From NCBI RefSeq assembly GCF_964194155.1, contig NC_135897.1, positions 84,320,001 through 84,384,000 of the forward strand: a DNA stretch of 64,000 nt, given 5' to 3'. The first letter of the stretch is position 1, and every line of letters begins with the position of its first letter. The notes below the pieces were generated by a model. It did not search any database and was not told the DNA's origin. It worked only from the letters and a program-made list of their open reading frames with translations. A program made the translations under genes and the position numbers. The stretch comes from Cetorhinus maximus (Eukaryota). This document shows positions 7,059 through 63,285 of this stretch, one piece after another.

Positions 7059-7074
7059 TAACTCCATACAGGGA

Positions 7075-14468: not shown

Positions 14469-14662
14469 ATTTCTTCTCCGCCGATGCTGCCAGACTTGCT
14501 GAGTTTTTCCAGGTAATTCTGTTTTTGTTTTGGATTTCCAGCATCCGCAGTAGCTTTTAGCTTTTTGTTTTTATCTGGTAAGATTGTAGTTGGCCCTATA
14601 AGAGATATAAACATTTCACGCGGGTCCCAAAATCAAAGGGATGTTTTGGAAGGTAAAGATAA

Positions 14663-35620: not shown

Positions 35621-38158
35621 ATATAGACAGGTAAAGTGAGTGGGCAAAAATTTAGCAGTTTAACTACTGCTTGGGAATATGTGAACTTGTCCATTTTGGC
35701 AGGAAGCATAGAAAAGCAGTATACTATTTAAATGGAGAGAGATTGCAGAATTCGGTAGTACAGAGGGATCTGGGTGTCCTGGTACATGAATCACAAAAAG
35801 TTAGTATGCATGTACAGCAAGTGATTAGGAAGGCAAATGCAATGTTGGTTTTTATTGCAAGGGAAATGGAATGTAAAAGTAGAGAAATTTTACTGCAGCT
35901 GTACAGGGCCTTAGACCACATCTGGAGCACCGTATACAATTTTGGTCTCCTTATTTGAAAAAGGATATAATTGCATGAGAAGCAGTTCAGAGAAGGTTCA
36001 CTTGACTCATTCCTGGGATGAAGGGCTTAACTTATGAAGACAGGCTGAACAGTTTGGGCCTTTACCCATTGTAACTTAGAAGAATGTGAGGTGATCCTTT
36101 TGAAACACATAAGATCCTGAGGCGACTTAATAGGGTGGATACTGAGAGAATGTTTCCTCTTGCAGGGGAGACCAGAACTAGGGGACACAGTTTAAAAATA
36201 AGAGGCCTCCCTTTTAAGACTGAGATGAGGAGAAATCTTTTCCCTCAGAGGATTGATAGTATGTGGAATTCAGATTTTTGATAGACAAGGGAGTCAAGTC
36301 TTATGGGAGGGCAGACAGGAAAGCGGAGTTGAGATCACAGTCAGATCAGCCATGATCTTATTGAATGGTGGAGCAGGCTTGAGGGGCTGAATGGCCTACT
36401 CCTGCTCCTAAGTCCCATGCTCCAAAGTAAAAAAGCTACTGCTGTGGGAAAGCAGGGTGAACTGTTTTGTGTAAACAAACAAGCAGGATGCTTGTGAGAG
36501 TTTGGTTTCTGTTCAAAAGAATGGCATAAGAACAGACTTGGCCTGAAGATTTAAGGAATGGGGAGTCGTCTTGATGTGCCTTGTTGGCGATAATTGTATC
36601 TGGTAAACTTGAATAGGGAGTGGAGCGATTGTTGAAGGGCACTGGAAATTTTGGCTTGGCGGGGGGAAGTGAATCACTGCTGGAGAGCTGGGAGTGACTG
36701 TGGGATTGTCCTTGTAATATTACATATCTGTCAGATGTGAGGTGTTGCGTAAAGACATAAAATATATCTCAGATGTGTTAGTAAATGCAAAATGTACCTT
36801 TTTTAGTTTGATGTATTAGTTGCTGGTCAAATGAATGTTTGACTCACGTTGATGTTAATTTGTTATAGTAAAAGTCTTAAAAATCTTGTCCACCGGTTTA
36901 TTTCTGTTGGCAGTTTGGGAAATTTGTCTCTTTTTAATAGGTTATCGGACCCTACAATGATTGCAAACCTATATGCATCATCCCTAGGCAAAGGAGTAGA
37001 ATAAGTACAATGCAAATAACAAAGGAAACATGTACCATTGTCTGCTGAAAGAACAATGTAAATAACAATCCCTTCCTTAAAAATGATGCTACATAATCTT
37101 ATTGAAAGACACTGAAAGATTTAACTGCATTTGATTTAGTTCTTCATCAACTTCTAAGCAAATGTAAGAGCATGTTAGTTCTTGTTTCACACTGAAATGT
37201 GTGGACATGTTGTTTGGGAAGTAGGTGATTGTTCTATCTTTATCCAGGCTAGTTTGCTGAAATGAGAACGTCTCCCTGTTTTAATTTGAAGAATATCTAT
37301 TTATTTTGAATGGCTGCAGGGCTCCTGAGTGAGAGGATCACCCTCCAAACGGACTCCTTTGTCAATGCAAGTGTTCACACACACCAACGGCCAATTTCCA
37401 CTGAATGTACAGAACGGCAGTCAGGTGACAAAACTGCTAGCACTCAACGTAATCAGAAGAATTCTCTATGATATTTGCTGTATTTGTCCCTCCCTCTCTC
37501 CCAATTTTCTGATCACTTAACTGAACATATTGACCTAAAACAGTCTATCTCATTCTCCAGGTATTAACAAAACGTCTCATTAAGATTAAACACTGAGGCT
37601 GTATGTTGCTATATTTCCCTAACACGGTAATGTTATATATTATACAGGAATCAACTGTGGACACTGTTTCATGTATGGGGTCAGCTGTACTTCTTCAGTG
37701 TGTACTCAGTGAGAGCTTTTATTGAACTGACCTTAAGATGTCTGTCTCCAGAGGCAGAGTGCCTCATGGCAGAGCCCATGAATGTGGCAAGCCAGTTAGT
37801 CAGTACAGCATTACATTTCCAAAACTCAAACAGACACAATGAAGCATGAATTTTCCTGATCAGAATGCTTCAGTCAGCTTATAACAAAATCAGATGAAGC
37901 AATGAAGTTAGCAGACTAACTTAATTCATTTCAATGTTGTTTTGTGGGACTTTGGCCACTGTTTCTGACAAGTTGACAAAAGTGTGACAATACTTCAAAA
38001 AAAGCATCACTCTGATGTAATTGTTCAATAGGCGCTCCATAAATTCAATGCCTTCATTCTTCCCATTCCCCCATCATTATTTTTTGAGCAGATCATGATG
38101 TTGTTACTGATTCCTTTGACAGCAAGGGCAGGTTCGAGGCAATTTTGTAAGATTGGTG

Positions 38159-39214
38159 TTAATTTCGATCACACTGTTGAATTGCAGTCGGTTCATCGAG
38201 TACAGTTTGTGAAGGGTGAGTTTGTAAAGACTGATCATTGTGTGAATCATTGTCCTTTGAGTTTCTCTCCAGGCCCAACTTTGACCTAAATGCCTTGCAA
38301 AACAGAAAGTAGATCACTGGATCAAGGCAGGCGTTAAGCGATGACAGCACAACTGCAGATTCTTTAAAGTGGTAAAGAGTCTTTTTCCAAAAACATCCAG
38401 TGATGACATTAATCTGACTTAAAATGTAAGGAAGCCTTGCGATGTGGTAGGGAACGAAACAGACTAAGAAGACAGTAAGGAGGATGAGGATGTTGTTCTT
38501 TGCCTTGGCTTGCTTTTTGAGTGAGCTTGGAGATGGGGATTTGTCAAGACGTTTTGCAGTTTGAAAGTAAAAGAAGCAAAGCCCTATTAGCACGCAGAGA
38601 AACAGAACTGTGCCTCCAGCATGGAGGAATATATGCCAGGTAATTCCCTTACCACTTCTAAATCCTAAGCATGTTTCTTTTGTACTATTCTGGGCTGGCT
38701 TTTTCCCTGACAGGAACATGTATGAAACTCCAAGGCTGAGAAGTACACACCAGGTTCCAATGGAGACAATTCTTGCAGACTTGACAGTTTGAAATGCATA
38801 TATTTTCAATGGTTTGACAATTTTCAGGTATCTAGTGGCCGCAATGTATCCCAGGAAGAGAATGCTTGAGTACATGTTCAAATAGAAGATGCAAGTCACA
38901 AAATTGCAGTAGGTTTTTCTCAGCGTTATGGAGCTCACCTTGTTTCCTCCGATGATTTTTATAGGCAGTGAGAGGACCAGCAAGAAATCGGCTATGACCA
39001 GGTTCTTTAAATAGATGATGATGCTGTTGCGGTTGGGAACGTGATAGAAGTAGACCCAGAAAGCCAGGCTGTTGAGAATGATTCCAACGACACAAATTAA
39101 CGAATAGGCAGTAATTGTAAATGTTATAAAACCATCAGAAGAAAACTGGCAAACGATGTTGCCAGAGGAATTTGTGTTTGAGCTGATCTCGATGCTTGCT
39201 GTAGGGTCAGCCAT
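38159..39214 (-). CDS. P2Y purinoceptor 14-like GPCR, copy A (351 aa)
   Basis: Seven TM segments; IYLKNLVIADFL, FYLNMYSSILFLG, ATRY in place of DRY, CFVPYHIARLPY, KES, NACLDPVIY. Splice acceptor AG at 39224-39223, 8 nt before the ATG. Exact orthology to P2RY14 is not established. Confidence 0.9.
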   Translation of the reverse strand: MADPTASIEISSNTNSSGNIVCQFSSDGFITFTITAYSLICVVGIILNSLAFWVYFYHVPNRNSIIIYLKNLVIADFLLVLSLPIKIIGGNKVSSITLRKTYCNFVTCIFYLNMYSSILFLGYIAATRYLKIVKPLKIYAFQTVKSARIVSIGTWCVLLSLGVSYMFLSGKKPAQNSTKETCLGFRSGKGITWHIFLHAGGTVLFLCVLIGLCFFYFQTAKRLDKSPSPSSLKKQAKAKNNILILLTVFLVCFVPYHIARLPYILSQINVITGCFWKKTLYHFKESAVVLSSLNACLDPVIYFLFCKAFRSKLGLERNSKDNDSHNDQSLQTHPSQTVLDEPTAIQQCDRN

Positions 39215-39222
39215 CGGTACAT

Positions 39223-40035
39223 CTGAATGTTAAAGTAGAATATGTTACTTTTCTAGAAAGGTGTCACATAGCAATTTGCTAAAAGAGGCAATGCTTGAAA
39301 AGTGGAAGTGCTGGGTGGGAGATTCAGTATTTTAATCAAATACTTATCATTTGATAGCTGGTTGTTGATGTATTTTACATCCACTATGGAATATTAGAAG
39401 TGCAACAGCAAATCATGACAACAAACTTGATGTGCTTTGCGTTAAATCAAACAATGGTTTTCCTCTGGGAAAGGCATTTAGCACTGCCCATCTTTACCTT
39501 TGATATATCACTTTGTCGCAACATTGCAGAATTTATGTAACTACAGTTTGAAGACTTGGAGCTTGTTCACCTTGAGAGAAGGAGCTTGCATTTATATAGC
39601 ACCTTTCATAAATTCAGGATATCCCAAATCAACTTACAGCTAACGAAGTACTTTTGAAGTGTAGTCACTGTTGTAATTTCTGAAAAGTGGGAACAAAGTT
39701 CCATAAACAGTAGTGCATCCAAAACATCAATGTTGAATGTTCTGGATTTCTTGTTTTGGATTCTGGTAAATGAATCATAATTATTGATTGCTATTAGTTA
39801 CTGATGAATCAGTAACTGTCACAAAGTGCATGAGGGAAACTCTACTGGCATAGATTATCAGCTCCTGACTTGGACTCATTTCCTGCTATCTGCATGTCTT
39901 TTTTTATTTAAAAAAAAGCTTCAAAATTTGGAAATTTTAAATAAAAACTGTAAATACCAATAATATGTGAAATTTATCTATTACCTGCTGCCCCCCCCAC
40001 CCCCCCCCCCGCCTCCCCCAATTAGATTCATTTAC
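39223..40035 (-). other. Putative 5'-UTR intron of copy A (equivalent in copy C is ~60630-61711)
   Basis: Acceptor ACATTCAG is conserved in all three copies. Donor AAG|GTAAAT at 40036/40035 aligns with AGG|GTGAAT at 61712/61711. Confidence 0.5.
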
Positions 40036-40234
40036 CTTAAAGGAGCCTGTTTATCTTCTAGGTCTAACAACGGATTCACAGGTAAATGCTATTGCGTTTG
40101 AAGGCACTGATAAACCTGCTGCATTTTTCCAGCACAATCTGTTTCCCTCCCTGTTTCTTTTGTTGTAATTGTCTGTGATTAAGCAAATCATTTTCTAGTT
40201 ATGTGACAGTTTCAGGGGCTTCACAGAAGAGTGT

Positions 40235-40330
40235 TTTCAGGAAATGTACGAAACAGCAAGGCAGACATTTCCAAACTGAGGAAGGGAGTTACGCAACTGA
40301 CTCTTTTAATTATGTGTGACTAATTCTCCA
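40235..40330 (-). promoter_or_regulatory. Candidate promoter of copy A (C/EBP-, AP-1- and ETS-like motifs); paralogous block at ~61900-61990
   Basis: GAGGAAG at 40278, GTTACGCAAC at 40288-40297, then TGACTC and TGACTAA, about 250 bp upstream of the putative donor. Confidence 0.4.
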
Positions 40331-41344
40331 AACCTGGTCATTGGTTCTTGTACTGAACGCTAGATTATTAATTGAATTGTTAAGAGGGAAAGATGTAAGG
40401 TTTTGATTTTGGTGGCAGGTATTTAACAAAATTTACTTCAAAACCATGACCTAATGTTTCTTTCCTGAAATTTCTGTTCAAAAACCTACTTTTGTTGAAA
40501 CAAAAGTCAGAATTTGCATTTATCTGATGCCTTTTCCTTTTATACGATTGCACCATAAGTACAAAAGCACCCGGGGGTTATGTGCTGAAGTGCCTGGAGT
40601 TGGACTTGAGCCCATGTATGACCTTTTGTCTCTAACGCGATAGTGCACGCACTAAGTCAAGGTGGACTCCTTGTTGTTATAGAACAAGCTAACCATAGAC
40701 ATCACCACTTCAGAGGGAAGATTTCTTTAATGGCAAATACCTGATAAAATTCCACACTCGTTTAAGAGAGTTACTGTCCACTGACACTTCCTCACAATGT
40801 TTAAATGGTATCAAACCTAAATGCCTGGAAGACAACAAAACAGAGCGCAGTGATCACTGACGTGGTTAAAATGAATGTGTATATGCACATCTTCGAGTTC
40901 ATTGCTAATCTGGATTTAGTTCAACATACCTTTGAGAGCGTTACATCAGATACCTTCAAGTGCAAAGAGACACTTGGATGTGAAAAATCTTTCTGGAGAG
41001 GTAGAATGAAGTTCTGAAGGAATAACTATTCTCAACCTGACACAGATGATCACTGTATATATAATCCCACAAAGAGAAAGGAAAAGTCACCTACCTGACT
41101 GAAAGTGTTTGATGTGGTATTACTCTGTGCCCTGCACGGTCAAGAGTTTCTTGCAGCGATACTGGACTGAAGTCATATGCGCAAAATGTTTTCTCATCCT
41201 CATGATATCGGTAAATTTGTGGTGTTCAGCATTTCCTTTAACGAGAAGTGGCAAGAATTGAGATGAATAGTCAAGTGCAATAGTTCGACTCAGAGCAGCA
41301 TTGTGACTTTGAGTAATGCTGTTGTACAACAGGAAATAGGGTGT

Positions 41345-43240
41345 TTTTTAAAAAAAATATTCTTTCATGGGACATGGGCATTGCTGGAAAGATCAGCTTT
41401 TGTTGCCCATCCCTATTTACTCTTGAACTGACTGGCTTTCTAGGACATTTCAGAGGGCAGTTAAGAGTCAACCTGGAGTAACATGTAGGCTCATAGACGT
41501 TTACAGCATAGAAGGAGGCCATTCGGCCCATCATGTGTGCGCCGGTCAACAAAGACCTGACTGCATTAATCCCATTTTCCAGCGCTTAGCCCATAGGCCT
41601 GGAGACTATGGCAATGCAAGTAAATATCTAAATACTTCTTAAATGTTACGAGAGTTTCTGACTCAACCACCTTTTCAGGCAGTGAGTTCCAGACTCCCAC
41701 CACCATCTTAGCCTTCGACCTCTTACCTTAAATCTGTTCCCCTGGTTATTGGCCCCACTATAATGGAAAAAGTGCTGCCTTATCCACCCTATCTATGCCC
41801 CTCATGATCTAACATACCTCTATCAGGGCCCCTCTCAACCTTCATTGCTCCAAGGAGAACAGAAACATCTCTCTACCATCACTCTCTGCCTCCTGCCTCT
41901 CAGCCAATTTTGGATCCAACATGTCACTTTGCCTTGGATCCCATGGGCTCTAACTTTCTTGACCTGTCTGCCATGAGGGACCTTTTCAAAAGCCTTGCTA
42001 AAGTCCATGTAGACCACATCAAATGCATTACCCTCATCAACACTCCTAGTTACCTCCTCAAAAAAATTTGATCAAATTTGTCAAGCACGATCTTCCCTCA
42101 ACAAATCCGTGCTGACTATCCCTGATTAATCTATGTCTCTCCAAATGCAGATATATTCTGTCCCTCAGAATCCTTTCTAGTAACTTCCCCACTGCAGAGG
42201 TTAGACTGACTGGCCTGTAATTTCCTGGTCTGTCCCATCCTCCCTTTTTTAATAATGGGACAATGCTTGCAGTCCTCCAGTCCTCTGGCACCTCAACTGT
42301 GGCCAGAGAGGATTTGAAAATTACTGCCTGGGCCCCTGATATCGCTTCCCTTGCCTCCCTCAACAGACCGGGATACATCTCATCCGGACCTGCGGATTTA
42401 TTCACTGTTAAGGCCACCAGTACCTCCCCTCCCTCTATGTTAATTTCCTCTAATATTTCACAGTCCTCCACCCTGATGTCAATGTCTGCGTCGTCCTTTT
42501 CCATTATGAAGACCGATGCAAAGTGTCCATTGAGGACTGTACCCATGTCTTCTGGGTCCACACACAGATTACCTCTATGGTCGCTAATTGGCCCTACTCT
42601 TTCCCTAATTACTCTTTTGCTCTTTATATCTTTATTCTACTCACCAATGCTTTCTCATGCACTCTCTTAGCTTTCCTAATTTCCTTTTTAAGTTCCCCTC
42701 TGCACCCTTTATACTACTCTGCTGTATTGAGCCCTCGGCATCTGCCATAAGCTTCTCTTTTTCTCTTAATCCTAACCTTTATGTCCCTTGGCATCTAGGG
42801 TTCTCCAGCCTTGGCCCCCCCACTTTGTCTTTATGGGAACATATTTGCCCTGTACTCTTGCTATTTCCTCTTTGAATGCCTCCCACTGCTCTGACACAGT
42901 TTTATCTGCAAGTAGTTGCTCCCAGCCCACTTGAGCCAAATCGTACCCCATCTTAGTAAAATTAGCCTTTCCCCAGTTTAGAAGGGGTTCGCCAGTTGAG
43001 TAGGACTAACCAGGTAAGGATGGCATATTTCCTTTCCTAAAGGACATTAGTGAACCAGATGGGGTTTTATGAAAATTGGTGATAGCTTCATGGTCACCAT
43101 CACTGAGACTAGATTTATTAATTAATTGAATTTAAATTCCAATAATTGCCTTGGTGGGATTTGAACCCTTGTCCCCAGAGCATTAGCCAAGCTTCTAGAT
43201 TACTAGTTCAGTGATGTTACCACTATGCCACTGTCTCCCC
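41345..43240 (-). mobile_element. tRNA-derived SINE split by a CR1 insertion (tail 41345-41490, head 43001-43240)
   Basis: The two halves join to reconstruct the 25040-25416 SINE; GTAGG occurs at both junctions. Confidence 0.85.
41492..42990 (-). mobile_element. Internally deleted CR1 LINE fragment
   Basis: KSAGPDEMYPGLLREA, GNYRPVSLTS, VYMDFSKAFEKVPHGR and a CR1 3' tail at 41492. Confidence 0.9.
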
Positions 43241-43285
43241 ATCAGATCTAATGATTTACAGATCTAACGATGCACTGTAGAGTTT

Positions 43286-43288
<3 letters not shown>

Positions 43289-43324
<36 letters not shown>

Positions 43325-43334
43325 TGTCTGTGTG
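43289..43334. repeat. (TG)n microsatellite; paralogous tracts at ~54994-55015 and 63255-63283
   Basis: Direct TG dinucleotide run at the same position in all three duplication units. Confidence 0.9.
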
Positions 43335-45923
43335 CGCTTTTCATATCACACCTCAGTTTTGAACATTTGATTGCCAAATTTGAAGTTACACAGCAACCTG
43401 GGCCAGCTTGGTTAGTCTACACTTGGAGTTCTGGTCTCCATGTGGCATCAGTGTTAAGGAGGCACTGTGAGAAGGTACAAAAAGGCTTCAGAAGGATGGT
43501 ACCAGAACTGAGGATATAATTATCAACAAAAGGCTGAAGAAGCTCAAACGTTTTTCTCAGGAAAAGAAAAGGTGAAGAGTAATTTGGTAGGGGCCTTTAA
43601 GATTATAAAAAAAAAAGTTTGATAGATTAAAAGTGGAAAGAAATGCTGCTTTTTTTTTAAACGTGTCTAAAGAGTTACGAAAGTTGGGTTGAGGTTGAAC
43701 AATGTGACTTAAAACAAACAAAACCTCACGTTTTGTGGTAGGCCTGTACATCATTGCGTATACTGGAATTGAGTAGAATTAGACTGGGTCCTGCTTATTA
43801 TGACATTTGTGGCTTGGATTGGAGCCCTGGTGCCCCTCGTTCTCTGCCCCTCCCTGGAGTTGTACTGCACCCTCTCCTCCTGTAAGGAGAGAAGGCAGAG
43901 GATTACAAGAGTGTGAAATAGATTGTGTGGAGAAGGAGGAAGGATGCCATTTTGTGGAGGGTGACCGTGACACAGGAGTGAGGTGGCACATGATAAGGGC
44001 GTGAGTGTTGGCTGGTCAAATTGTGGATTGTGGAAAGGTGTCAGGATAGAGGGCAATGAATGGAGCTACAAGGTACGTTGGTCTGAGTAGTGTTATATAA
44101 GAGAATGCTGAAGAAGTGAGTGTGTGGGGTTTGGCACCTGGAAGTGTTTTGCCACGTTTTTTTCTCACCCTCCTGAGGTCCTAGATCCTCTTACAACATT
44201 GTCTCCAGGTTCGAGGGATTACGCTCCTCCTGCAGACTCCCCAAGCCTTCTCCATTCACAGCTACTTGGTGGGAGAGGCCGGTCTCATCTTTGTCAAGGA
44301 TTGGAGAAAACACCTCACTGAAACCTGTCAGAACCCACAGCACGACCTCCAGGTAAGATTCCAAGACCCTAAGGGGTAGCCTCCCCAGGTTTTCTTTATG
44401 TTTCTATGATTGCTGAAGCCAATATCAGGATATCACAGCAGAGGGTCGCACCTGTGTACCTATTGTCATGAATGCTGAACTTCACAAGATGAATATGTTT
44501 TAAAACATCCCATTTAACTTTAGGTAAGACAGAACATTTTCTGAAATGGTGGGGGGTGGGGTGGGGGTGACTGGTGGTCAGGGTGAATTCCAGATAAATG
44601 CCACAGTTTGGAGAAATGCCCATGTGATCCAGTTGTCTTGGGGAGAGAAACTGAAGTAGAAACCCATTGAAGTGGGGTGGCTGTTTTAGCACCTTTTCTC
44701 ATTATCTCACAGCAAAGGATAGCCGCTATATGAGATTCCCAAACAGAGCAGCTACCTCTGTGGGAAATCAGGGTGAACTGTTTCATATTAACAACCAAGC
44801 AGGATGCTTGTGAGAGTTCGTTTCTGCTTAAAAGAAAGGGAGTAGAACAGACTTGGCTTTTGAAGATTTAATGAATGGGCGTGGTCTTGATGTGTCTTGC
44901 TGGTGATGATAGGAACCAGAAAACTTGAACATGAAGTGGAGGGATTGTTGAAAGACCCGAGAAGTTTCGTTCTGGTGTGACGGGGTGAAATGAATTTTTG
45001 CTAGCAAGCTGGCAGTGAGTGTGGGATTGTTCCTGTAATGCTACACATCTGTCAGAACTGAGGTGTGTGTAAAAGCATTTCAGGAAACATATTTCGGTTT
45101 TATTAGTAAATGCGAAAGATACCTTTTCTCTTTAGTTTGATGTATTAGTTGTTTGTCAGTTAATGTTTGATCTTTACTGATTTTGGTTTGTTACAGCAAA
45201 ACTCTTAAGTGAAATCTTGTCCACCGGTTTATTTCTGTTGGTAATTTGGGCAATCTGTCTCTCTTTGAAAAGAAAAAGATTGTAATCCTATCATGCATCA
45301 TCCCTAGGCAAAGGAGTAAATAAGTAGAATGCAAATAATAATGGAAACATGCACCATTGTTCACCAAAAGAACAGTATAAATTGTTGGGAAGGTGTTGGT
45401 TACAGAATTTTTTGTCTTAGAGAAGTCTTTGTAGTCTTTAGTAGGCTAACTGTAAGTCTTTATTTACAAGTAGAACTATTTACAAATGTACGGTAAAGGG
45501 GACAGGCTAGTAGCTATCTCCATGTTAAGTTCTTTACATGTCTCTGCTGAACACCACACTGACCTCTGGGTCTGGGTCATGTGCTTTTTTACATCACTGT
45601 GTGTGTGGTACTGCACTCAGTCCCACATTAACCCTTTATGTGCCATACCCTTAAACTACACCTCCCACCAAGTCTTTATCCAATGGATATGGAGTTACAC
45701 TGATTTACTTCATGACTTACATTGTTATCAGTCTCATAGATTTACATCTCATAGATTTACATTGTTGTTACCACTTTATTAGTATTGTGGCATTATTGCT
45801 ATAACTGTATTATCATTATTACAACATTCTCACTACCAAGGCTCCCCCGCTTCAAGTCCTTGAAGTTACATGTTCAGGCAGTCTGGCAGCCTTATAATGC
45901 TTGCACATCCCATTTACCATTCT

Positions 45924-46172
45924 CAACAAAAACAAAAACAGAATTACCTGGAAAAACTCAGCAGGTCTGGCAGCATCGGTGGAGAAGAAAAGAGTTGACG
46001 TTTCGAGTCCAATGACCCTTCAACAGTTCTGTTGAAGGGTCATTGGACTCGAAACGTCAACTCTTTTCTTCTCCACCAATGCTGCCAGACCTGCTGAGTT
46101 TTTCCAGGTAATTCTGTTTTTGTTTTTGTTTATGATTTCCAGCATCCGCAGTAGTTTTTTGTTTTTATCTCT
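45924..46172 (+). mobile_element. Fold-back PLE derivative nested in the Gypsy element
   Basis: Near-perfect ~100-bp inverted arms centred at 46027-46028; 14-bp TSD CCATTTACCATTCT at 45910-45923 and 46173-46186. Confidence 0.92.
46025..46062 (+). ncRNA. Minimal type-I hammerhead motif with GUC cleavage triplet (CUGUUGA core variant)
   Basis: AGTT-CTGTTGA-A-GGGTC-ATTG-GACTC-GAAAC-GTC-AACT. Confidence 0.75.
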
Positions 46173-49100
46173 CCATTTACCATTCTGTTGGAAGAGTGGT
46201 AGGCTCAGTCGTTTCTGGTCCTTCCAGTTGGCTTGGAGTTTGGATTGGAACTTGGGTGTCTTCCTCGATAGTTTGCTACTGTGTGATGGGAGCGGCTGGT
46301 CTTGAGATCACGCGGAGACTCCTCCTGTATTGTCTGACCGTGCTTCTGCCACGCCAATCTGGTCGTTCTGTCTGATGACCATACCTTCTCTCTCAAGGTC
46401 TGTGATCCAGGCCTCGTCACCCTTCTGCAGCTGTGGCAAGTGTCTGGTGCGGTGCCTTCTCTTGTAGGTGGAAGCTTGTTTCTGTCTGTAGGACTGCGTT
46501 TTTGTCTGGGTGTCCAGGTAATCCTTGGTTATCAACCCTGGCATTAGTTTTTGCGGCCGGATCGGGAGTTATGTGTGAAGCTCTCTGCCCGTCAGGAGCT
46601 CGGGTGGTTGCACTGTAAGGGGGTGGACCTGTATGTGAGCAGTGCAGTGGAAAAGTCCTCGTTCATGTTCAGAAGGGCTATCACCATGTGGACCCCTCGT
46701 TCTGCTTCTCCCCTTTGACTGTGGGCACCTTTGGGAGCTGGTGCGGTGGAGAAATTGGCTGCGAAGTGTGCAAAGTATTAGTTGGAAAATTGCGGGCCAT
46801 TATCGGACATGATTTCATCCAGGATGCCGTGGCTTGCAAACATCTCTTTTTAGCGCTTTGACGACTGTCACTGTGCTAGTCGTATAAAGTTGTTTTACCT
46901 CCATGCACCTGGAGAAATAGTCCACAACTACCGGGAAGGATTTGCTGTTGTAGACAAACAGGTCGATGCCCAGCCTCTCCCAAGGTCTGTTAGGGAATTG
47001 CATGGGAATGAGCGGTTTCCCGTTAGTCCTGCCGGTGGAATGCATAAATCTGGCAATTTGCAATGGTCTCTTCTATTGCCTTGAAGATGTGCGGCCACCA
47101 GATGGCAGATCGGGCCTGTGTCCTGCAATTAGGTGCGAGTGACCCTGATGTAAATTTTTTGAAGGACATCAGGCCACAGGGAGGCTGGGATGATCAGTCG
47201 TTCTTCATAGACCAGGAAGTCATCTGTAACCGTAAGGAGGTTTTACGGCTCGAACCGTGTTTTTGTGGCACCTCTGTTGGGTCTCAGTTGAGGCCATCGA
47301 TACTTGCTGAATCTGCGGATGCGAGTGCACTCTCTATCAGACAGTTGCTCCTGGAGGATCTGTTGGAGTCTGGTTGTGGTTGCAGACAGGTGTCTGCTTG
47401 TTGCTTGGGAATAGGCCTCCAGTCCTGCAACAAAGTTGACATCCTGTTTTATTGGGAGGCCCTCTGTGGCCCTCGAAAGTGTGTCTGCTGTCGCCTGATT
47501 TTTTTTTCCCTTGGACATGGACAATCTGATAGATGAATCGCATGAGGTGTAGGTAAAACCTCTGGATCCTTGGAGGCATCTTTGCCGGCTCCTTCTCATC
47601 CAGTAAGGAGACTAGTGGTTTATGGTCCGTCTCGATTGTGATCTTGAGGCTGACGATGTAGTCAGAAAACTTCTCGCATGCCCATTACGCTGTGAGGGCT
47701 TCTTTTTCTATGGTGGTATATCTTGTCTCCGTGTCCGGCAGCCCTTTGGAAGCGTAGAACACAGTCAGCGACTTCCATTCAGTTTCTCCTGAAAGGGGAC
47801 CACGCAGAGGCCTGTGGATGAAGCATCTGCTGCTATGGTGATAGGCAGGGTCGTAGTGGCCAGAATTCTAGTGAAGAGCAGTGTCGCCTTGATGCGAATG
47901 AATGCTTGCTCTTGCCGTTGAGTCCCAGCACCAGACTTGGTCTTTATCGAGCAGGTGTCCCAAGGGTTCTGTGACCTGTGCCAAATTAGTTAAGAGCTTT
48001 GCCAGCTGGCTCACCATCCCCAGGGGACGCTGGAGGTTGGGGACTGAGGAAAGGGGTGAGGAACTCACTGATCACCTTGGTTTGTTGTGGGTCCGCTAGG
48101 ATGCATTTGTTGCTGGTGATGTGGCCCAGGAACCGAATGGGCATTATGGAAAATTCACATTCGTCGTTCAGCCTCAGTCCTGCTTCCTGCTTCCTCCAGT
48201 TGCACCAAGGCTGTCGTGAGCCTTTTGCCATGCTCTTCCACTGTCGCTCCATGAACCAAGACGTTGTCGGTGTGGCAGATGACCCCCTGAAGGCCCTGCA
48301 AAATATCTGACGTCGTGTGTTGGAATCTCTCTGCTGCTGAGGTGATCCCAAAGGGCAGGCGCTTGAAGCAGAATCAGCCTAATAGATGTGCTTAGGGACC
48401 AGAGTCCTCATCAAGGGGAAGCTGCCAGAATCCGTTGTGGCATCTAATTTCGAAAATACCCTGTTCTTTCTAGAGTTTACTCAGGCTTTCGTCCATTGTG
48501 GACATGGGATGAACGTCTCTGGGTTACAGCCTTGTTACACTATGTCAGGTCGATGCAAATGTGGAGGGACCCCCTCATTCGGTTTTGGGTCTGGGACCAT
48601 CCCAGCACGCCACACAGTTGGTTGTGTGATTGGGCAGATGACGCCGATGTTCACCATCCCACCCAGCTTCTGCTGTAATTTCTTCATGAAGGGGTGGGGG
48701 CTTTTGTTGGAGTGAAAAGGCACACTGGTTTATCATCGTCTCTCAGTGTGATCCTGTACGCACTTTTCAGACGTCCCAGTCCCCTGAATAGCTTCAGGAA
48801 CTCGCTTTTGTATTTGGAGCCAGGCCCTCCTTGGTTGACCTTGTCGCTATTTTGCATGAGCTTCTGTTCGACACGGTTGTTGTGCTCTGAACAGAGAGTA
48901 GTCCTGGTTGTGGACGTTAAACAGGGCCGCTTGGATTGTTTTGTGCTTAAACCTCAGTGTCGGCTGCAGGGTGCCCTTGACTGGAAATCTCAATCTTCCT
49001 GCTACGTCGTGGGTGGGGGTCAGCCGTTGGGTCACCAGCCATGGTTCTTTGTCCGACGGGACTGTTACGCTGGCTCCTGAATCTAATTTAAAATTATTTA

Positions 49101-51347
49101 GATGGCCATTGACAAAGATATCTGTATTCCAGAATGAGAAACCACAATCCTTGACCTCGCCCAGGGAGCATGGCTGTGTCTCTTCGGTCCCGACCTCGTG
49201 GATTACTTTGGGGCCTTCGTTTTGACTTGCACGCTTTGCCGTAGTGGCCCATCCGCTTACAGCGGAAGCATTGGGTTGTACTCGCAGGACACTGGTCTCT
49301 CCTGCGAGGGCGCTTCTCACCGCAGCGCTGGCAAGGCTGCTCTGCTGGACGGTTCAAGCATTGCTTTCTTTGACTTGGATTTTCCCCACGTCTTTGTGGC
49401 TTGTTAAGCTGGACTCAGAGTTGGCTTCTACCTTGTGTTTTATTTTCTCCCATTAAGATTTTCCTGTGCTGTCCAAGGAGCTCAGATAATCTGTCTATCT
49501 GGATTTCCTTGTCTAGAGTTAGATCATCTTTAGCTTGTGGGAGGACAGAGAGTGCATCGCCTGTTGCACCCACCACTGTTCTGTTTCTGGTGAGTTCAGA
49601 CTTTAAATCTGCATATTCACACCCCTCTGCCATCCTGTAGAGATCATTTATGAAGGAATCGACGGGTTCCCCCTGGTAGTTGGACTCTATTATTGAATTT
49701 AGCTCTCTCCAGTATTTTGTTGCTTCATAAGTTTAAAATAAATGTCAAAACGTTTTAAAGCCGCCTCGAATTTGGCCGATGACTAATTAATACCCTCTCT
49801 TATAATGATGTCGTCTACAATTGGGCCTATAGAGTATAGCAGCATGTTCACCTCTTCTTCTGACATTTTATTTAAACCAGAAGTGATGCTGTACCTTAAA
49901 AAAATCTTTTCCTCCAAAGACCCTGACTTTGTGACTGGCCTGGGCCTTGGGTTAGTCCAAACTGAGTTGAAAGTGTTGAATTGTGATTCATGTTAAAAGT
50001 TTGAAAATTGCATATGCGGGATTTCCTGCACTTGCCGGTTTTGGCAGGCTGTGCAAAATGGCAGTGGCGTGCTTCTTGAAGGGGACTTTTAGCGGCGGCT
50101 GCCTGGAGTGGCTGTGCGCTGACATCTTTTGCTCCGCAGTTTACTGTGACGAGTAATGAGGTGTTCAAATTCAGGGTTACACTTGCCATTTTCCGAGCTG
50201 GACCGTTGCGGTCTTCCTGAGCGCTTTAAATAGGTAGTTAGCTTTTCTTATGTTACGAATTCGGAAGCCACATGCTGGGGCTCCGACTGGGCGATCAGGT
50301 TGTAGCAATGGGCTTTCCCTCAGTGGCACTTCTGACGCTGAATTAGGGAAGGGATTCTCAGGACTAGCGGCTGCCTGGAACTTTAAAAGGTTTGGCTAAC
50401 CCTTGCAGGCTCTGTGCTCTGAAGCTGGACTTCCAAGGGATATTCAATGGAGTCTTCTGCTGCAGTAAAAATCTCCGCCTTCAGCTTCCAGGCCTTTTCT
50501 CTGGAGCGTTTTCTGGCAAATTTTCTCTGTGCTTTCACCTTCTGTGGGGAGCTTCTCTCAGGTAGAAATTTTTGTTGGAGTCTTTTACTCTTCCAGCATC
50601 GCGGCTTGTTTCAGCATTTTAGCAAGGTTGACGGTTTTTGATCCCCATCTGCCACCATGTTGAGAGAGTGTTGGTTACAGAATGTTGTGTTTTAAAGAAG
50701 CCTTTGTAGTCTTCAGTAGGTTCACTGTATGTCTTTATGAACAAGTAGAACTATTTGCACGTACAGTAAAGGCTGCAGGCTTGCATTGTCTCTGTGCTTA
50801 GGTCTTTACACGTCCCTGCTCAACACCACACTGACCCCTGGGCCTGGGCCATGTGTTTTCTTACATTGCTGTGTGGGTGGTACTGTACTCAGTCCCACGT
50901 TAATCCAGCGTGTGCCAGACACTAATACGGCATAAATAACAACCCTTTCCTTTTAAATGAAGCTACAAAATCTTATTCAAAGACAGTGAAAGATTTAACC
51001 TTATTTATTTCTTTGCATCTGGTCCAATGGTCACTTCACAAGAAGTAAGCAACGTAAGAGTGTTTCAGTTCTTGTTTCACATTCAGAGATGCTGAAATGT
51101 TGTTTGGGAAGTAAGTGATTGTGCTATCTTTATGCAGGGTTTTTTCCTAAAGTGAGAACTCTTTCCTGTTTTCATTTGAACAATATCTATTTATTTTAAA
51201 TGGCCGCCGGCTCCAGGATGAGGATTATCCTGTTCACCCTCAAAATTAACTCTCAATGCAAGTGCACAAACGCATCCACGTCCAACTTCCGCTGTACGTA
51301 CAGAGCGACGCTGAAGTGACAAAGCTGCAAGTGCCCAGCATGATCAA

Positions 51348-52426
51348 GGGCAGAATTGGGGGAGCGGCTGGCTGTAAAATTTCTCGGACGGCCTTCCCAC
51401 GCGGCCCCCATCCACCCCAACCTCTCCGCAATTTTCCACTAGGACAGGCTAGGCCTATTCCGTCCCGCCCATGTCCCAATTGAGGCACTTGAGTGGTCAA
51501 TGATTGACCACTTATGGGCCATTTCCCGCCCGGCCACAATTTTCAGTTTCTGGTGGAATGAGTTCAGGGGCAGGGGTAAACCTGAAACAGGGTAACCCTG
51601 TTCAGGCCTCATGTGGGAAGGGGGCAGATGTGGCGCCTCCATCAGCAACTTCCTTTTAACATCGAGTGCCTCCCTGAAAAAGATTGGCCCCCATAGGTCC
51701 TCCCTCTCACCCCCCCATCCCTAATCTCTCAACCAGCGCACTCCCCCCCCCCCCCCCCCCCCCCCCCCACCCCCTCGACCCCGTGCCTCACCTCCCCATC
51801 CTGCCCTGAGACCCCAAAACTTACCTGGTCCTGAACTCCCGGCACTTAGGCTTTGGGGACTGCTTACAGTCCCAGTCCTGTCCATTGCAGCTTCTGGCGC
51901 TGCAGTAACTAGAGAGTTGTTGGCTCTCTGAGGCAGGACCTCCTTCCGAATGAGAGATGGAAGTCCAGTCTCCAAGCCAATTAATACTTGTTGGAGTGTT
52001 TAATGGCTGTAAGGCAGGCAGTATTGGCAGTGACAAAAACAGAAATACCTGGAAAAACTCAGCAGGTCTGGCAGCATCGGTGGATAAGAACAAAGTTGAC
52101 GTTTCGAGTCCTCATGACCCTTCAACAGAACTAAGTAAAAATAGGAGAGGGGTGAAATATAAGCTGGTTTAAGGTGGGGGGGTAGGGGGAGAGAAGTTGG
52201 GGGGGGTGCGGGTGGTTGTAGGGACAAGCAAGCAGTGATAGGAGCAGATAATCAAAAGATGTCACAGACAAAAGAACAAAGAGGTGTTGAAGGTGGTGAT
52301 ATTATCTAAGAGAATGTGCTAATTAAGAATGGATGGCAGGACATGCAAGTAGTGGCAGTGATGTGTTCATCACTGACTTTTTAGATGGTGGGAAGGGAAA
52401 CCCCATCATCCTAAAAATCCTGGCCC
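51348..52426. mobile_element. Non-autonomous Harbinger-like DNA transposon; shorter version at the paralogous site 58014-58378
   Basis: GGGCAGAATT...AAATCCTGGCCC termini; absent from the paralogous site in unit A (~37455). Confidence 0.7.
52034..52344 (-). mobile_element. PLE 3' fragment with hammerhead motif (52094-52132)
   Basis: Minus strand reads AGTT-CTGTTGA-A-GGGTC-ATGAG-GACTC-GAAAC-GTC-AACT; homologous to 14220-14525; degenerate TSD ending TGGCAGTGA. Confidence 0.88.
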
Positions 52427-52873
52427 AAAAGAATGTTCCTGACCTTAGCTGTATTCAGCCCTCCCTCGGTCCCAATCTTCTGATCACTTAAGTGAACATA
52501 TTGACCTAAAGTGATCTTTCTCATTCTCCAGGTGTTAACTAAATGTCTCATCAAGGTTACTGAACCAACGCTGGCTATATGTTGCTATATTTCTCTCACC
52601 CGGTCAGTTTATTTATGTTATACAGGCATCAGCCGTGGACACAATGAAGCATGAATTTTCCTGGTCAGAATGCTTCAGTTGGTTTATGTCAAAATCAGAT
52701 GAAGCAATGTGATTGTGCAATATTCCAAAATTCTGCTTTATAGTTACATCATTTTGTTTTTTTTAACTGCAAGCTATGAAATATATAAGCTGTCTGTGTG
52801 TAGGCATTTTACACTCTTATTTGTTGAATTAAAGTTGCAGGAGATTGATATTTTAAGTATTGTTCAAAAAAGA

Positions 52874-53175
52874 TGTTGAAGCTTTTCGCCTTGCACTTAT
52901 CAGGTCACTTCGCAAGAATACCAATAAAAGGGGGAACAGCAATTTATACTGTATGAGAAGAGAGTGCGGATTGGTTGACAAGTAAATTCTGGTAGCGGCA
53001 TTGTCATGGAGAATGCACCAGTAATGGTGACTGGCAGTTAACTGCCAAGCATTGTTTGAAAGTTAAACCAGACAGCTTGACCCTGATTGGTCAAGACATT
53101 GCCCTGAGGAATGAGTCAGTGAATGGCTGTCACTCATTTTGTTCAGCTGAAACAGGCACAGTGTGTGTACATGTT
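52874..53175 (-). mobile_element. Family-2 hammerhead-bearing repeat abutting the 3' end of pseudogene B
   Basis: Homologous to 1268-1370. Minus strand reads TGAC-CTGATAA-GTGCAAGGC-GAAA-AGCTT-C-AACA at ~52874-52907. Confidence 0.7.
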
Positions 53176-53179
53176 ACAT

Positions 53180-54216
53180 GGTTGAAGTGGCTGCTGTCGG
53201 TTCATCAAGTATGGATTGTGAAGGGCTAGTATGCAAAGATTGATCATTGTGTGAATCATTCTCCTTTGAGTTTCTCTCCAGGCCTAACTTTGACCTAAAT
53301 ACCTTTCCAAACAAAGAGTAGATCACTGGGTCAAGGCAGGCATTGACAGCACTATGGCAGATTCTTTAAAGTGGGAAAGAGTCTTTTTCCAAAAACATCC
53401 AGTGATGACATTTATCTGACTTAAAATGTAAGGAAGCCTTGCGATGTGGTAAGGAACAAAACAGACTAAGAAGAGTAAGGAGGATGAGGATGTTGTTCTT
53501 TGCCTTGGCTTGCTTTTTGAGTGAGCTTGGAGATGGGGATTTGTCAAGACGTTTTGCAGTTTGAAAGTAAAAGAAGCAAAGCCCTATTAGCACGCAGAGA
53601 AACAGAAATGTGCCTCCAGCATGGAGGAATACATGGCAGTGAATTCCCGTACCACTTCTAAATCCTAAACATGTTTCTTTTGTACTATTCTGGGCTGGCT
53701 TTTTCCCTGTCAGGAACATGCACAAAAATCCAAGACTGAGAAGTACACTCCAGGTTCCAATGGAGACAATTCTTGCAGACTTGAGAGTTTGAAAAGAATG
53801 TATTTTAAATGGTTTGACAATTTTCAGGTATTTAGTGACCACAATGTATCCCAGGAAGAGAATGCTTGAATACATGTTCAAATAGAAGATACATGTTGTA
53901 AAATTGCAATAGATTGTTCTCAGTATTGTGGAGCCCAAATTGTTCTCTCCTACAACCCTTGTAGGCAGTGAGAGGACCAGCAAGAAATCGGCTACGACCA
54001 GGTTCTTTAAATAGATGATGATGCTGTTGCTGTTGGGAACATGACAGAAGTAGACCCAGAAAACCACAGGCTGTTGAGAATGATTCCAACTACAAAAACT
54101 AACGAATAGGCAGTAAGTGTAAATATTGTCAAGCCATCAGAAGAAAACTGGCAAGTGATGTTGCCAGAGGAATTTGTGCTTGTGCCGATCTCGTCGCTTG
54201 CTGTAGGGTCAGCCAT
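53180..54216 (-). pseudogene. P2Y14-like pseudogene, copy B
   Basis: Colinear with copies A and C but has a 2-nt insertion (~54066), a 2-nt deletion (~53474) and a ~7-nt deletion (~53344). TRY is changed to TKY and the C-terminus is truncated by a repeat. Confidence 0.92.
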
Positions 54217-57040
54217 CAGCACATCTGAATGTTAAAGCAGAATATGTTACTTTTCTGGAGTGGTGTCACGTAACAATTTGCCAGAAGAGGCAATCCCTGA
54301 AAAGTGAAAGTGCTGGGGCAGAGATTCAGTATTTTAATCGAATAATTATTGTTTGGCAGATGTTAAAAACACTGGATGAACACACCCATTTAAGAGGGCT
54401 TCTCTACACTGAGGCTTCCCTCGCAATGTTTAAACAGTAACAAACCTAAATGCCTGAAAGACAATAAAAAAGAGTGCAGTGATCACTGACATGGTTGAAA
54501 TAATTGTTCATGTGCGCGGTCTTCGATTTCATTGCCAGTTTAGGTTTGGTTCACCATATCTGATTTAATGTCCTTAAAGCATCTTCAAATGCAAAGAAAC
54601 ACTTGGATGGGAAAAATCTTCCTGGAGAGGCAGGTATCAAGTTCCAAAGGAATAACCAGTCTCATCATTGACAGTGATGGTCACTGTATATATAATCCCA
54701 CAAGCAGAAAAGAGGAGTCACCTACCTGGCTGAAAGTGTTTGATGTAGTATTACTCTGTGCCTGCACGGTCTAGAGTTTCTTGCAGCGATACTGGGCTGG
54801 ACCTGTGTGTGCAAAATGTTTTCTTTTTTAACCTCATGATATTTTTGGCCAATTTGTGGTGTTCAGCATTTCTTTTGACCGGAAGTAGCAAGCAGTGAGA
54901 TGACATGGTCCAATGCAACTCAGACTAATGACCTTAAATGCAAGTGATGTGCAACAGGAAATAGGGCATATAATTTAAAGATCTAACTATGGAGTGTGTG
55001 TGTGCACGTGTGTGTGAGAGAAAAATCTATCTGTCACTTTATTTTGATGCATGGAGAGTTTGCCTTTTGCTAAATTTAAATTTATACTGAAATCTGTGTC
55101 ACCTCGGTCTACCTACACTTGTGGCATAAGTGATAAGGAGGCACTGGAGACGATGCAAAAAGGTTTCAGAAGGATGTTCCCAGAACTGAGAGGATATAAT
55201 TATGAGGAAAGGCTGAAGAGGCTGGAGCATTTTTCTCTGGAAAAGAAAAGGTTGTGGAGAAACCTGATAAGGGCCTTTAAGATTACAAAAAGGTTTGGTA
55301 GATTAAATGTGGAAAAATGCTGCTTTTTATGCACGAGTCTAAAGCATTATGAAAATTGGGTTGAGGTTGAACAACGTGATTTGAAACAAACAAAACCTCA
55401 CATATGGCAGTAGGCCCATATATTGTTGTTTACACTGAGTAGAACTAGACTGAGTTAGTGTGTCCTGTTCATTATAACATTTGTGGCTTGGACTGGAGCC
55501 ACTATGTCCTTGGTTCTCTGCCCCTCCCTGGAGTTGTTCTGTACTCTTTTCTCCTGCAAAGAGAGAAAGCAGAGGATTGCATGTGCGTGAAATGTGTGGA
55601 GAAGAAGAAAAGGGAGCTTTTGTAGAGGATAACTAAGTCATGGAAGTGAGATTGCACAACGATAAGGGTGTGAGAGTGTTGGCTGGTCAACTGGGATGTG
55701 AGGAGATGTCTGGATAGAGGGGAATGAGTGAAGCTGCAAATTATGTTGGTCTGGGTAGTGTTATATAGGAGAATGCCGGGGCAGTGAGAGTGTAGAGTTT
55801 GGCACCTGAAAGTGCTTTTGCCCTCATGAGGTCCTAGATCCTCTTACGATGTTGTCTCCAGGTTTGAGGGGCACACTCCTCATGCAAACTTCCCTCATCC
55901 TCTTCCATTCACTCCTGCTTGGTTGGAGGGATTAGCCTATCTTTCCCAATGACCGGAGAGACACTGCACTCATTGGGATCCCGAAGCAGGATGATCAGGG
56001 GGCAGCCTTTCGAGGTTTCCTTTCCATTTCTGTGATTGCTGAAGCCACAGGAATCAATATCAGGATTTCCCATTGGAGAGCAGCATATATGTAGCTATTG
56101 TCATGAACGATGAACTTTACAAGATTCTTACGTTTTAAAATGTCCCATTCACCTTTAGGTAAAAAAGAACGTTCTGAAATGGGGAGGGGGGTGGGTGGGT
56201 GGGGGGTTGGGAAGTGTGTGGTCAGGGTGAATTCCTGACAAACACCACAGCCCCCACACAACCCATGTGACCCAGTTGTCTTGGGGAGAGAAGCTAAAGT
56301 AGAAACTCATTGAAGTTGGCGGGGTGGGGGTGGGGGGGGAGCTGATTTAGCACCTTTTCTCATTATCTCACCGAAAAGGACAGCCATTGTTCATGATACC
56401 GAAACACAGCAGCTACTTCTATGGGAAAGCAGGGCCAACTGTTTCATATTAACAACCAAACAGGATGCTTGTGAGAGTTTGGTTTCTGTTTAAAAGAAAG
56501 GGAATCGAACAGACTTGGCTTTTGATGATTTAACGAATGGGTAATCATCTTGATGTATCAAGAAACTCAAAACTTGAACAAGGAGTGGATTGTTAAAGGG
56601 CTCTGAAAGTTTAGACCTGACATGATGGGAATAAATGACTCTTTGATGGCGAGCCGGCAGAGAGTGTGGGATTGTTCCTGTAATGTTACATATCTGTCAG
56701 AAGTGATGTGTTGTATGTAAAGGCATTTCATAAAACATATTTTAGTTTTGTTAATTAGTAAATGTGAAATGTACGTTTCTCTTTAGTTTGATGTATTAGT
56801 TGCTTATAAATTAATGTTTATCTTTATTGGTTTTAGTTTGTTACAGCAAAACTCTTAAAAAGTGAAATCTTGTCCACCGGTTTATTTCTGTTGGTAGTTT
56901 GGGAAATCTGTCTCTTTTTAAAACTTTATTGGTCTGTGCGAGGATTGTAATCTTATCTGCATGAACCGTTGACAAAGGAGTAAGATAAGCGCAATGCAAA
57001 TAACAAAGGAAACACGTACTATTGTTCACCAAAAAGAGCA

Positions 57041-57294
57041 GTTGGGAGGGTGTTAGTTACAGAATTTTGTGTCTTAAAGAAATCTTCGTAGTCTTCAGTA
57101 GGTTAACTGTAATTCTTTATGAACAAGTAGAACTAGTTACACATATACAGTAAAGGGTACAGGCTAGTAGTTATCTCCATGTTTAGGTCTTGACATGTTT
57201 CCGCTCAACACCACACTGACCTCTGGTTCTGGGTCATGTGCTTTCTTACATCAGTCCCACATTAACCCTGTATGTGCCAGACACTTACACAACA
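57041..57294 (-). mobile_element. Solo LTR of the Gypsy family at the site paralogous to the provirus
   Basis: Matches LTRs 45383-45660 and 50658-50932; followed by TAAAT (57295-57299) and the same flanking DNA. Confidence 0.9.
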
Positions 57295-57600
57295 TAAATA
57301 ACAAACCTTTCCATTTAAATGACCGCACATAATTTTATTCAAAGACAGCGAAAGATTTAACCACATTTGACTTATTTCTTTTCACATGGTCCAGTGGTCA
57401 TTTCACAACTATTGAGCTAATGTAAGAGCAACTTTGGTTCTTGTTTCACATTCAAACATACTGAAATGTTGTTTGGGAAGTAGGCGGTTGTGCTATCTTT
57501 ATGCAGGGTTTTTTCCTAAAGTGAGAACTCTTTCCTGTTTTCGTTTGAACAATATCTATTTATTTTAAATGGCCGCCGGCTCCAGGATGAGGATTATCCT

Positions 57601-57892
57601 CAGAGATAAAAATGTCACAGATGTCACAGACAAAAGGATCAAAGAGGTGTTGAAGGTGGTGATATTATCTAAGAAAAGTGCCAATTAAGAATGGATGACA
57701 GGATACTCAAGGTACAGCTCTAGTGGGGGTGGGGTGGAAAGACTAACAAAGTTTTAGTTTTAGATTTAAAAATAATGGAAATAGGTGGGAAAAGAAGAAT
57801 CTATATAAATTATTGAAAAAAAAGGGGAGGAAGAAATGGGGTGGGGATGGGGGAAGGGGGAGTTTAAGATCTAAAGTTGTTGAATTCAATAT
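57601..57892 (-). mobile_element. PLE fragment (ORF end plus 3' UTR, no pseudo-LTR end)
   Basis: Matches the reverse complement of ~14023-14310; 7-bp TSD TTATCCT at 57594-57600 and 57893-57899; the empty site is visible in unit B at ~51225. Confidence 0.9.
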
Positions 57893-60621: not shown

Positions 60622-60739
60622 CGGTACACCTGAATGTTAAAGTTAAATATGTTACTTTTCTAGAAAGATATCACGAAACAGATGCCTTGAAAAATGAGAA
60701 GTGTAGGATGTAGATGCAGTATTTTAATCGAATAATAAC

Positions 60740-61046
60740 ATTTTTTAGTTACCATCACTGGTTAGGCTAACGTTTATTGCCCATCCATAATTGTACTTGT
60801 TTAGAGGTCATTTCGGAGTCAACTGCATTACTGGAGTCAACATGTAGGCCAGATTAGGTAAGGACGGCAGATTTCCTTCTACTAAAGGACATTAAATGAA
60901 TCAGTTGTCACCATTAGGCTTTTAGTTCCAGATTTTTATTGAATTCAGATTTCACCATCTGCCAAGGTAGGATGTGAACCCAGGTCCCTAGAGCATTACC
61001 TCGGGCCCCTGGATTACTAGTCCAGTGATGATACCACCACCTCCCC
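60740..61046 (-). mobile_element. tRNA-derived SINE in the 5' intron of copy C
   Basis: Same family as 25040-25416; absent at the paralogous sites ~39345 and ~54347. Confidence 0.85.
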
Positions 61047-62109: not shown

Positions 62110-62325
62110 GCAAGCCTTCGGAGCTCTTCCTCAAAAGGCTGTGGAAGCAGAGCCTTTGAATGCTTTTAAGGCGGAGCTAGATAGATTCTTGATTAACAAG
62201 GTGGTGAAAGGTTATTGGTGTGGACAGGAATGTGGGGTTGAAGTTACAAGCTATGATCTTATTGAATAGCGGAGCAGGCTAGAGGGGCCGATTGGCCTAC
62301 TCCTGCTCCTAATTGGTATGTTTGT
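62110..62325 (+). mobile_element. CR1 3' fragment specific to unit C
   Basis: CTCTTCCTCAAAAGGCTGTGGAAGCAGAG...GGCCTACTCCTGCTCCTA; absent from the paralogous site at ~40430. Confidence 0.8.

Positions 62326-63252: not shown

Positions 63253-63285
<33 letters not shown>

Follow-up and report, generated by a model that had tools for sequence, protein, structure and literature searches.

Fold-back hairpins of a Penelope-like element (PLE) show a peak of arm ends, throughout the genome under study, at the 5' edge of a predicted hammerhead motif, at positions -3/-4. On the scale used here, core C3 of the hammerhead is 0, the 5' strand of stem I occupies -4 to -1, the scissile bond is predicted at +29/+30, and the tail spans approximately +100 to +143. 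The genome comprises 3.99 Gb, and the window, the whole stretch of DNA that was analyzed, comprises 64,000 nt. The feature is real and far stronger than the three examples in the window from which it had been predicted imply. The original prediction was right about the boundary and probably wrong about the mechanisms, for which it had proposed either that the folded ribozyme makes reverse transcriptase (RT) stall or switch template or that a short ribozyme-bounded RNA is itself the mobile unit. The part of the second proposal that survives is a template RNA starting at the ribozyme edge, which we read as a probable transcription start. We consider it moderately probable that a promoter-defined RNA start, combined with twin priming and run-off, explains both the solo stubs and the hairpins.

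The three hairpins reported with different TSDs were recovered exactly, at 2275-2464 (14-bp TSD), 17166-17370 (12 bp), and 45924-46172 (14 bp). In the last of these, the focal hairpin, the left TSD (45910-45923) matches the right TSD (46173-46186) exactly. Self-comparison delimits an inverted short arm (45924-46026, minus strand), which runs from an inner 3' end (~+99) to core C3 (0), and the long arm (46024-46172, plus strand) runs from -5 through the hammerhead to the tail end (+143). The arms show 1 mismatch over 102 aligned nt and are joined via a 3-nt CAG microhomology common to both. The tail at 46129-46172 (plus strand) is present in one arm only and would lie between two RT start sites, as suggested by bimodal 3' ends (see below) and by PMC11167929. 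In the hairpin at 2275-2464 (TSD at 2261-2274 and 2465-2478), a short arm running from +96 to +32 meets a long arm running from +11 to the tail, and the inversion placed at ~2343 does fall inside stem II. The hairpin at 17166-17370 consists of a long arm on the minus strand, from the tail to -4, and another arm from -2 to ~+68; its TSD overlaps the arm end. Symmetry axes determined by self-alignment lie at 17302 and 46027.5, with core C3 at 17305 and 46029, in line with the claim that the inversion points precede the core by 1 to 3 nt. The TSDs and the differences between arms rule out an assembly artefact as the source of the hairpins. Among four RNA runs aligned to the focal locus, contigs of two runs from one sample span the right junction of the focal hairpin with one difference; a further RNA-contig joint, from 45878 to 46176, was not counted as an empty allele and may have its source in the host repeat's other copies.

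The window also harbors solo copies. Two of these had been said to begin at the core or stem I, and they do: a long stub (6531-6670, plus strand) starts at +1, and a short stub with a canonical CTGATGA core (6957-7060, plus strand; previously placed at 6956) starts at -4. The latter has a 9-bp exact TSD core plus a 14-nt filler, and the flanks of the former were checked for a TSD and none was found. Three copies that were absent from the original prediction extend past the hammerhead, namely, a 5'-truncated long parent copy with RT, Zn-linker, and GIY-YIG in a broken frame (11573-14577, plus strand; TATA at 14399-14402, 30 nt upstream of A(-4) at 14429), a solo copy reaching ~-217 (52033-52349, minus strand; TATA at 52161-52158, A(-4) at 52132), and a copy of an old subfamily, ~72% alike, that reaches at least -21 (26823-26963, minus strand).

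The predicted minimal type I hammerhead motif of the focal long arm, recognized from sequence and fold, occupies 46025-46062 (plus strand). It comprises stem I (46025-46028/46059-46062), the core (46029-46035), stem II (46037-46050), GAAA (46051-46054), and a predicted scissile bond after 46058, and the A at 46025 (-4) would be the RNA start. Folding pairs stems I and II, with the motif at -8.5 kcal/mol. An Rfam scan of the window gave 0 matches at the gathering score; the identification as a hammerhead rests on the motif, the folding, and PMC4209133, and cleavage is a prediction. The architecture known for PLE hammerheads of this type (stem I, CUGANGA, bulged A, stem II, GAAA, palindromic stem III, and NUH site) is present in the focal copy, but with A6 replaced by U. 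Among 46 matched cores, 18 are canonical and 28 carry U or C at A6 (those at 46029-46035 and 14433-14439 among them); the latter belong mostly to young subfamilies, and their stems stay paired.

For the genome-wide count of hairpins, two exact 14-mers were required, and hairpins were sorted by spacing into five 30-nt bins (25 to 174). When both arms end at the hammerhead boundary, the spacing is ~104; hairpins with spacings above 174 lie outside the count. The 8,410 hairpins counted were distributed as 703 (25-54), 1,864 (55-84), 4,231 (85-114), 1,038 (115-144), and 574 (145-174), corresponding to 8, 22, 50, 12, and 7%, versus 8, 14, 20, 26, and 32% expected for ends spread uniformly over +49 to -300. 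The genome-wide peak at the hammerhead that had been proposed as a check is therefore present, and breakpoints are not uniform. Among the first 100 arm ends listed for the 85-114 bin, assigned by eye, 20 lay at -3, 16 at -4 (several of these being ambiguous because of microhomology), 6 at -5 to -7, 1 at -12, and 57 from -2 to +15. In this tally, ends further upstream are restricted, though not forbidden, by the bin limit. G(-3), which lies one base within the predicted start A(-4), is the most frequent arm end. This one-sided distribution, trailing downstream of -3/-4, is the shape of a run-off end. We refer to its sharp edge as the wall.

In a minor class, hairpins are symmetric about the palindrome at the predicted scissile bond, and in several of them both arms end at +30 plus a short filler. 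Arm ends at +30 numbered 71 (two-letter filter, shortest bin), compared with the 8,410 hairpins counted overall. The +31 control gave 113 ends but is contaminated by a GTCGAC subfamily, and ~17 of the first 100 rows listed looked by eye like true +31 ends. Only 1 of the first 100 ends listed in the 55-84 bin, likewise read by eye, was exactly at +30, and a bump at +27 to +33 among the sample arms described below consists mostly of old copies. The +30 count is inflated because of T-rich microhomology at this position. These ends are a weak hint, at the genomic level, of cleavage, as microhomology can give the same pattern.

Individual arms were collected from stretches chosen by position: 160 regions were asked for, of which 5 did not exist, and the remaining 155 stretches of 10 kb together with the window made 156 stretches (1.614 Mb). 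They contained 172 arms, from which ~400,000 arms are extrapolated for the genome; one 39-mer alone has 32,643 exact matches genome-wide. Two arms without library alignment and 8 more at stretch edges were set aside, leaving 162. The 5' ends were mapped on 40 real long copies of several subfamilies, which guards against subfamily divergence mimicking truncation. In the zone from -15 to +11, 56 of the 106 arms that reach it stop, and ~47% continue; these 56 make up about half of the 110 stop events of the 162 non-edge arms, compared with 13.5 expected at constant hazard (p 8e-23). The stop hazard per 10 nt was 0.32 at -10 to -1, 0.24 at 0 to 9, 0.15 at -20 to -11, 0.10 at 20 to 29, and at most 0.065 elsewhere (0.03 to 0.05 at +30 to +49); per base, it was 0.027 in the zone versus 0.002 on the upstream side and 0.005 on the downstream side. 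The excess is not accounted for by decayed alignments of old copies, since it is retained among arms with an identity of 92% or more to a long copy (25 of 50 stops in the zone versus 5.6 expected).

Palindromic joining is not the cause of the wall either, since solo copies share it. TSDs were found for 16 of the 78 solos examined (shuffled pairing, 0.7 +/- 0.8), and 11 of these 16 start at -5 to +2; in 9 TSD-verified solos, the copy abuts its TSD. The stop position is the same for short and long arms (medians, +2 and +4.5; p 0.66; a 36-nt shift gives p 5e-10). Abortive synthesis determined by length is thereby ruled out, since the arms share a stop position rather than a length.

At their other end, the sample arms are bimodal, with 3' ends at approximately +91 to +107 and +125 to +143. 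Exactly one arm is long in 29 of 29 head-to-head pairs, and solos divide into 53 long and 52 short; six members of the "short" class are truncated before +90, and the spacers of three pairs exceed 100 nt. The two 5' ends of one hairpin are correlated (Spearman 0.66, 26 of the 29 pairs). In 3 of the 29 pairs, the long arm itself ends at +84 to +100, at the putative inner start site. The PLE protein of Anolis nicks and extends both strands and initiates at two internal sites that bound the tail (PMC11167929), and by analogy the bimodal 3' ends may correspond to two such internal initiation sites with extension of both target strands. As a separate observation, 4 of 30 ORF-start copies (L192, L201, L202, and L211) have a 5' end at +119 to +134, near the tail end, where the outer start site is supposed to lie.

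The parent element is, by its motifs, of the Neptune/Nematis type. RT and C-terminal GIY-YIG motifs are visible in the single ORF of long copies, with a CX4CX2C linker before the nuclease and a CxxC inside the nuclease motif; a CX2-5CxxC linker and two cysteines in GIY-YIG are the rule of the Neptune/Nematis clade (PMC8557442). One copy (L233) retains a natural stop-free stretch of 925 residues that matches RVT_1 (E 2e-6) and GIY-YIG (E 0.019) with scores that do not reach the Pfam cut-offs. Direct repeats with a 3,305-nt period occur at 16 of 20 long loci, and there are 29 inverted pairs in the sample. A separate set of ORF-start copies was made up of 30 of the best 40 matches to the ORF start, of which 22 are long-ORF copies; 17 of these reach +11, and a single one stops in the zone, compared with 56 of 106 arms (Fisher p 3e-4). 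The other 16 continue for 49 to more than 900 nt upstream, scar-free. This argues against an intrinsic block by the ribozyme, and also against the simplest linear-RNA model, so that a further step, by circle, read-through, or strand transfer, has to be assumed. A circular template has been proposed for PLEs (PMC4209133). The 5' and 3' pLTRs of one element are 3.0% apart, versus 4.7% from those of other elements, and these distances fit circle, read-through, and transfer alike and separate none of them. Three of 16 elements look chimeric by eye; in L230, L228, and L234, the 5' and 3' pLTRs are different subfamily variants (12% apart in L230), which suggests template switching between RNAs. Among ORF copies cut at their 3' side, 3 of 8 start at -6 to -1. 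In two of these three, L008:950-1645 (minus strand) and L217:1337-2122, a unit that extends from the wall through ~600 nt of ORF is followed directly by a second unit that starts at the wall; these composites look as would be expected of a template jump with two run-offs. By eye, 13 of 16 full-length copies have their 3' end at the fixed site of the short arm.

A TATA box ~30 nt upstream of a YYA initiator is the consensus of the Pol II core promoter. In 36 of the 40 long copies, a TATA lies 35 to 20 nt upstream of A(-4) and begins at -28 to -31 (background, 3.4%), and 39 of 40 have YYA at the wall. The TATA spacing is constant across diverged subfamilies with different box sequences, although the 40 copies share descent. 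By motif match, the wall thus coincides with a predicted TATA/initiator-like promoter. Such arrangements vary among known PLEs: a TATA plus Inr-like pair is carried by a rotifer pLTR (PMC3846280), and the D. virilis promoter has a TATA-less start, upstream of an intron (PMC2377424). RNA contigs from four of 23 runs, aligned to a pLTR-ORF stretch, gave no start or end signal.

The steps could then be as follows. RNA would start at A(-4), a Pol II start set by the predicted TATA/initiator, and the templates would be RNAs with this start, whose sources could include the numerous truncated copies in which the 3' end still carries the promoter. Both cut target ends would prime reverse transcription, at two neighboring start sites; both cDNAs would run off the RNA 5' end, giving arms that end at -3/-4, and the two cDNA ends would then be joined by microhomology or end-joining. 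Long copies may pass the wall via a circular template, a read-through transcript, or homology-guided transfer between terminal repeats. What is directly observed of this scheme is the family identity, the TSDs, the two groups of 3' ends, the single long arm in each pair, the wall at a fixed position, and the TATA spacing. More tentatively, and in our estimate possible rather than probable, PLEs may have a strong-stop step, in which a dimeric RT uses both target ends as primers on the segment that is terminally repeated and lies at the RNA 5' end; run-off would leave 100- to 145-bp stubs and hairpins, or synthesis would continue, through a circle or by repeat-guided transfer, and rebuild a promoter-bearing pseudo-LTR. 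If true, the hundreds of thousands of stubs would form a fossil record, at base resolution, of where the PLE RNA starts and of the two priming sites, with a small fraction of them recording templates cleaved by the ribozyme.

The template RNA could instead have its 5' end made by processing, either through trimming by a 5'-3' exonuclease up to a folded or protein-bound hammerhead or through splicing at a YAG. The wall is the first base pair of stem I, its bases can also be read as a splice acceptor (pyrimidine tract plus YAG), and the intron end in D. virilis maps to helix I (PMC4209133); processing would account for run-off equally well, and the ribozyme would stay the boundary. However, stem I is only 4 bp long, the folding energy of the motif is -8.5 kcal/mol, the fixed TATA spacing is left without explanation, and no upstream exon shared among 25 solo flanks was found (a score of 26 was reached in 1 of 300 pairwise comparisons). 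A spliced template with an upstream exon was rejected on the grounds that there is no common flank and that TSDs abut the wall. Overall, processing seems to us unlikely. Stalling or template switching of RT at the folded ribozyme, as originally proposed, has on its side the many junctions within the motif (the raised hazards at 0 to 9 and at 20 to 29), often at palindromes, and the turn of the 2275 hairpin within stem II. Since RT reads 3' to 5', though, a stall at the ribozyme is expected at its 3' edge (~+34), which is met first, and the hazard there is low; the wall at -3/-4 lies beyond the copied fold. In addition, the size of insertions in vitro is unchanged by hammerhead mutants (PMC11167929). 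The pass-through of long-ORF copies largely refutes this reading, and we regard it as distinctly improbable.

The proposal of a short ribozyme-bounded RNA is weakly supported where it makes the stub an independent, retrozyme-like non-autonomous family that moves via self-cleaved or circular RNA. The very high copy number would suit such a family, as would the small group of hairpins centered on the scissile bond, and pLTRs are the source of animal retrozymes (bioRxiv 10.64898/2026.07.22.740005). Against it, arrays are absent (3 same-strand neighbor pairs among 172 arms, none beyond two units), the main boundary lies 33 nt upstream of the cleavage site with exact +30 ends a small minority, the youngest cores carry A6U or A6C, and the stubs are without TATA and resemble long copies about as closely as their own partner arms. 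Moreover, junctions vary between copies, and hairpins are therefore not amplified as units. We give this family very little credence. The same holds for self-priming or snap-back, in which one arm would be copied from the other. An earlier proposal invoked self-priming on an antisense template (PMC3846280), and the correlated 5' ends and the frequent location of junctions on palindromes agree with it, but the short arm shares its fixed end site with solo and full-length copies, either arm can greatly exceed the other in length, and the wall in solo copies is unexplained by it.

Much of this element is familiar. That PLE copies often carry an inverted partial pseudo-LTR, as the original prediction had stated, is established (PMC8557442, PMC3846280), and the EN+ PLEs of these papers share with our element the head-to-head inverted, 5'-truncated copy, the 30- to 40-nt tail on one arm, the 9- to 16-bp TSD, partial tandems, the pLTR hammerhead, RT with C-terminal GIY-YIG, and the CX4CX2C linker. 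Taken by itself, the element is an unremarkable representative of an established class. In the accessible parts of the same papers, 5' truncation is described with no fixed point, whereas in the present element a single 27-nt zone takes up about half of the arm ends; it has a sharp edge at a TATA/Inr-like site, and long-ORF copies pass it. A literature search covering mainly non-subscription papers turned up no description of a 5' wall fixed at the hammerhead edge. The Anolis Poseidon element PAc is similar in that two 3' ends bound the tail and both target strands are extended, and the hammerhead is dispensable for its insertion; it differs in that start sites were alike on both strands in the PAc assay, in contrast to the strict one-long-arm rule here, and in that its ORF starts in stem II rather than after the tail (PMC11167929). 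PAc also provides the only PLE protein to have been reconstituted in vitro (PMC11167929). Short inserts (median, 128 bp) are found too in the hammerhead-poor PLEs of Chlamys (PMC9977147). Animal non-LTR retrozymes (PMC7229834; bioRxiv 10.64898/2026.07.22.740005) are likewise short, non-coding, pLTR-derived, and abundant and carry a type I hammerhead, but they are defined as tandem, with a hammerhead in each unit, a unit boundary at the cleavage site, and monomeric linear and circular RNAs, whereas the stubs are neither tandem nor bounded by the cleavage site.

Twin priming is known from L1, in which the second target end primes an inverted cDNA within one TSD pair. The two L1 cDNAs lie on adjacent parts of the template, whereas those described here cover mostly the same ~100 nt, with both start sites fixed. 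In LTR elements, minus-strand strong-stop DNA arises when priming near the RNA 5' end yields a short run-off cDNA across the terminal repeat. PLE stubs differ in being target-primed, with no tRNA primer and no integrase, and repeat transfer is a conjecture in their case. At issue are how PLEs rebuild the pseudo-LTR and why inverted copies remain. A sharp, genome-wide wall that is obeyed by short cDNAs and ignored by full-length ones places a testable limit on the replication cycle of PLEs, and it narrows the possible roles of the hammerhead, whose motif would stand at the very start of the RNA while presenting no barrier to RT.

Other features of the element and the window may be recorded. A donor-like CAG/GT is present at +79/+80 (46108-46114 in the window; the donor-motif count matched only 1 site and carries no information), and an acceptor-like site precedes the ATG (L015:1470-1565, minus strand); such a pair would put both RT start sites inside an intron of ~90 nt. 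No joint from CAG/GT to the acceptor was found in the RNA contigs among the joints listed (15 of 18), which lend this intron no support. The focal hairpin lies at the end of a zone occupied by another repeat family (36272-45660 and 50658-64000), represented by several long diverged copies that are 75 to 90% alike, with aligned pieces of up to 2.3 kb. At 1252-1499, there is an unrelated self-inverted element of 250 bp with arms 80% identical, possibly a MITE-like DNA transposon, and a related piece is found at 52874-52983.
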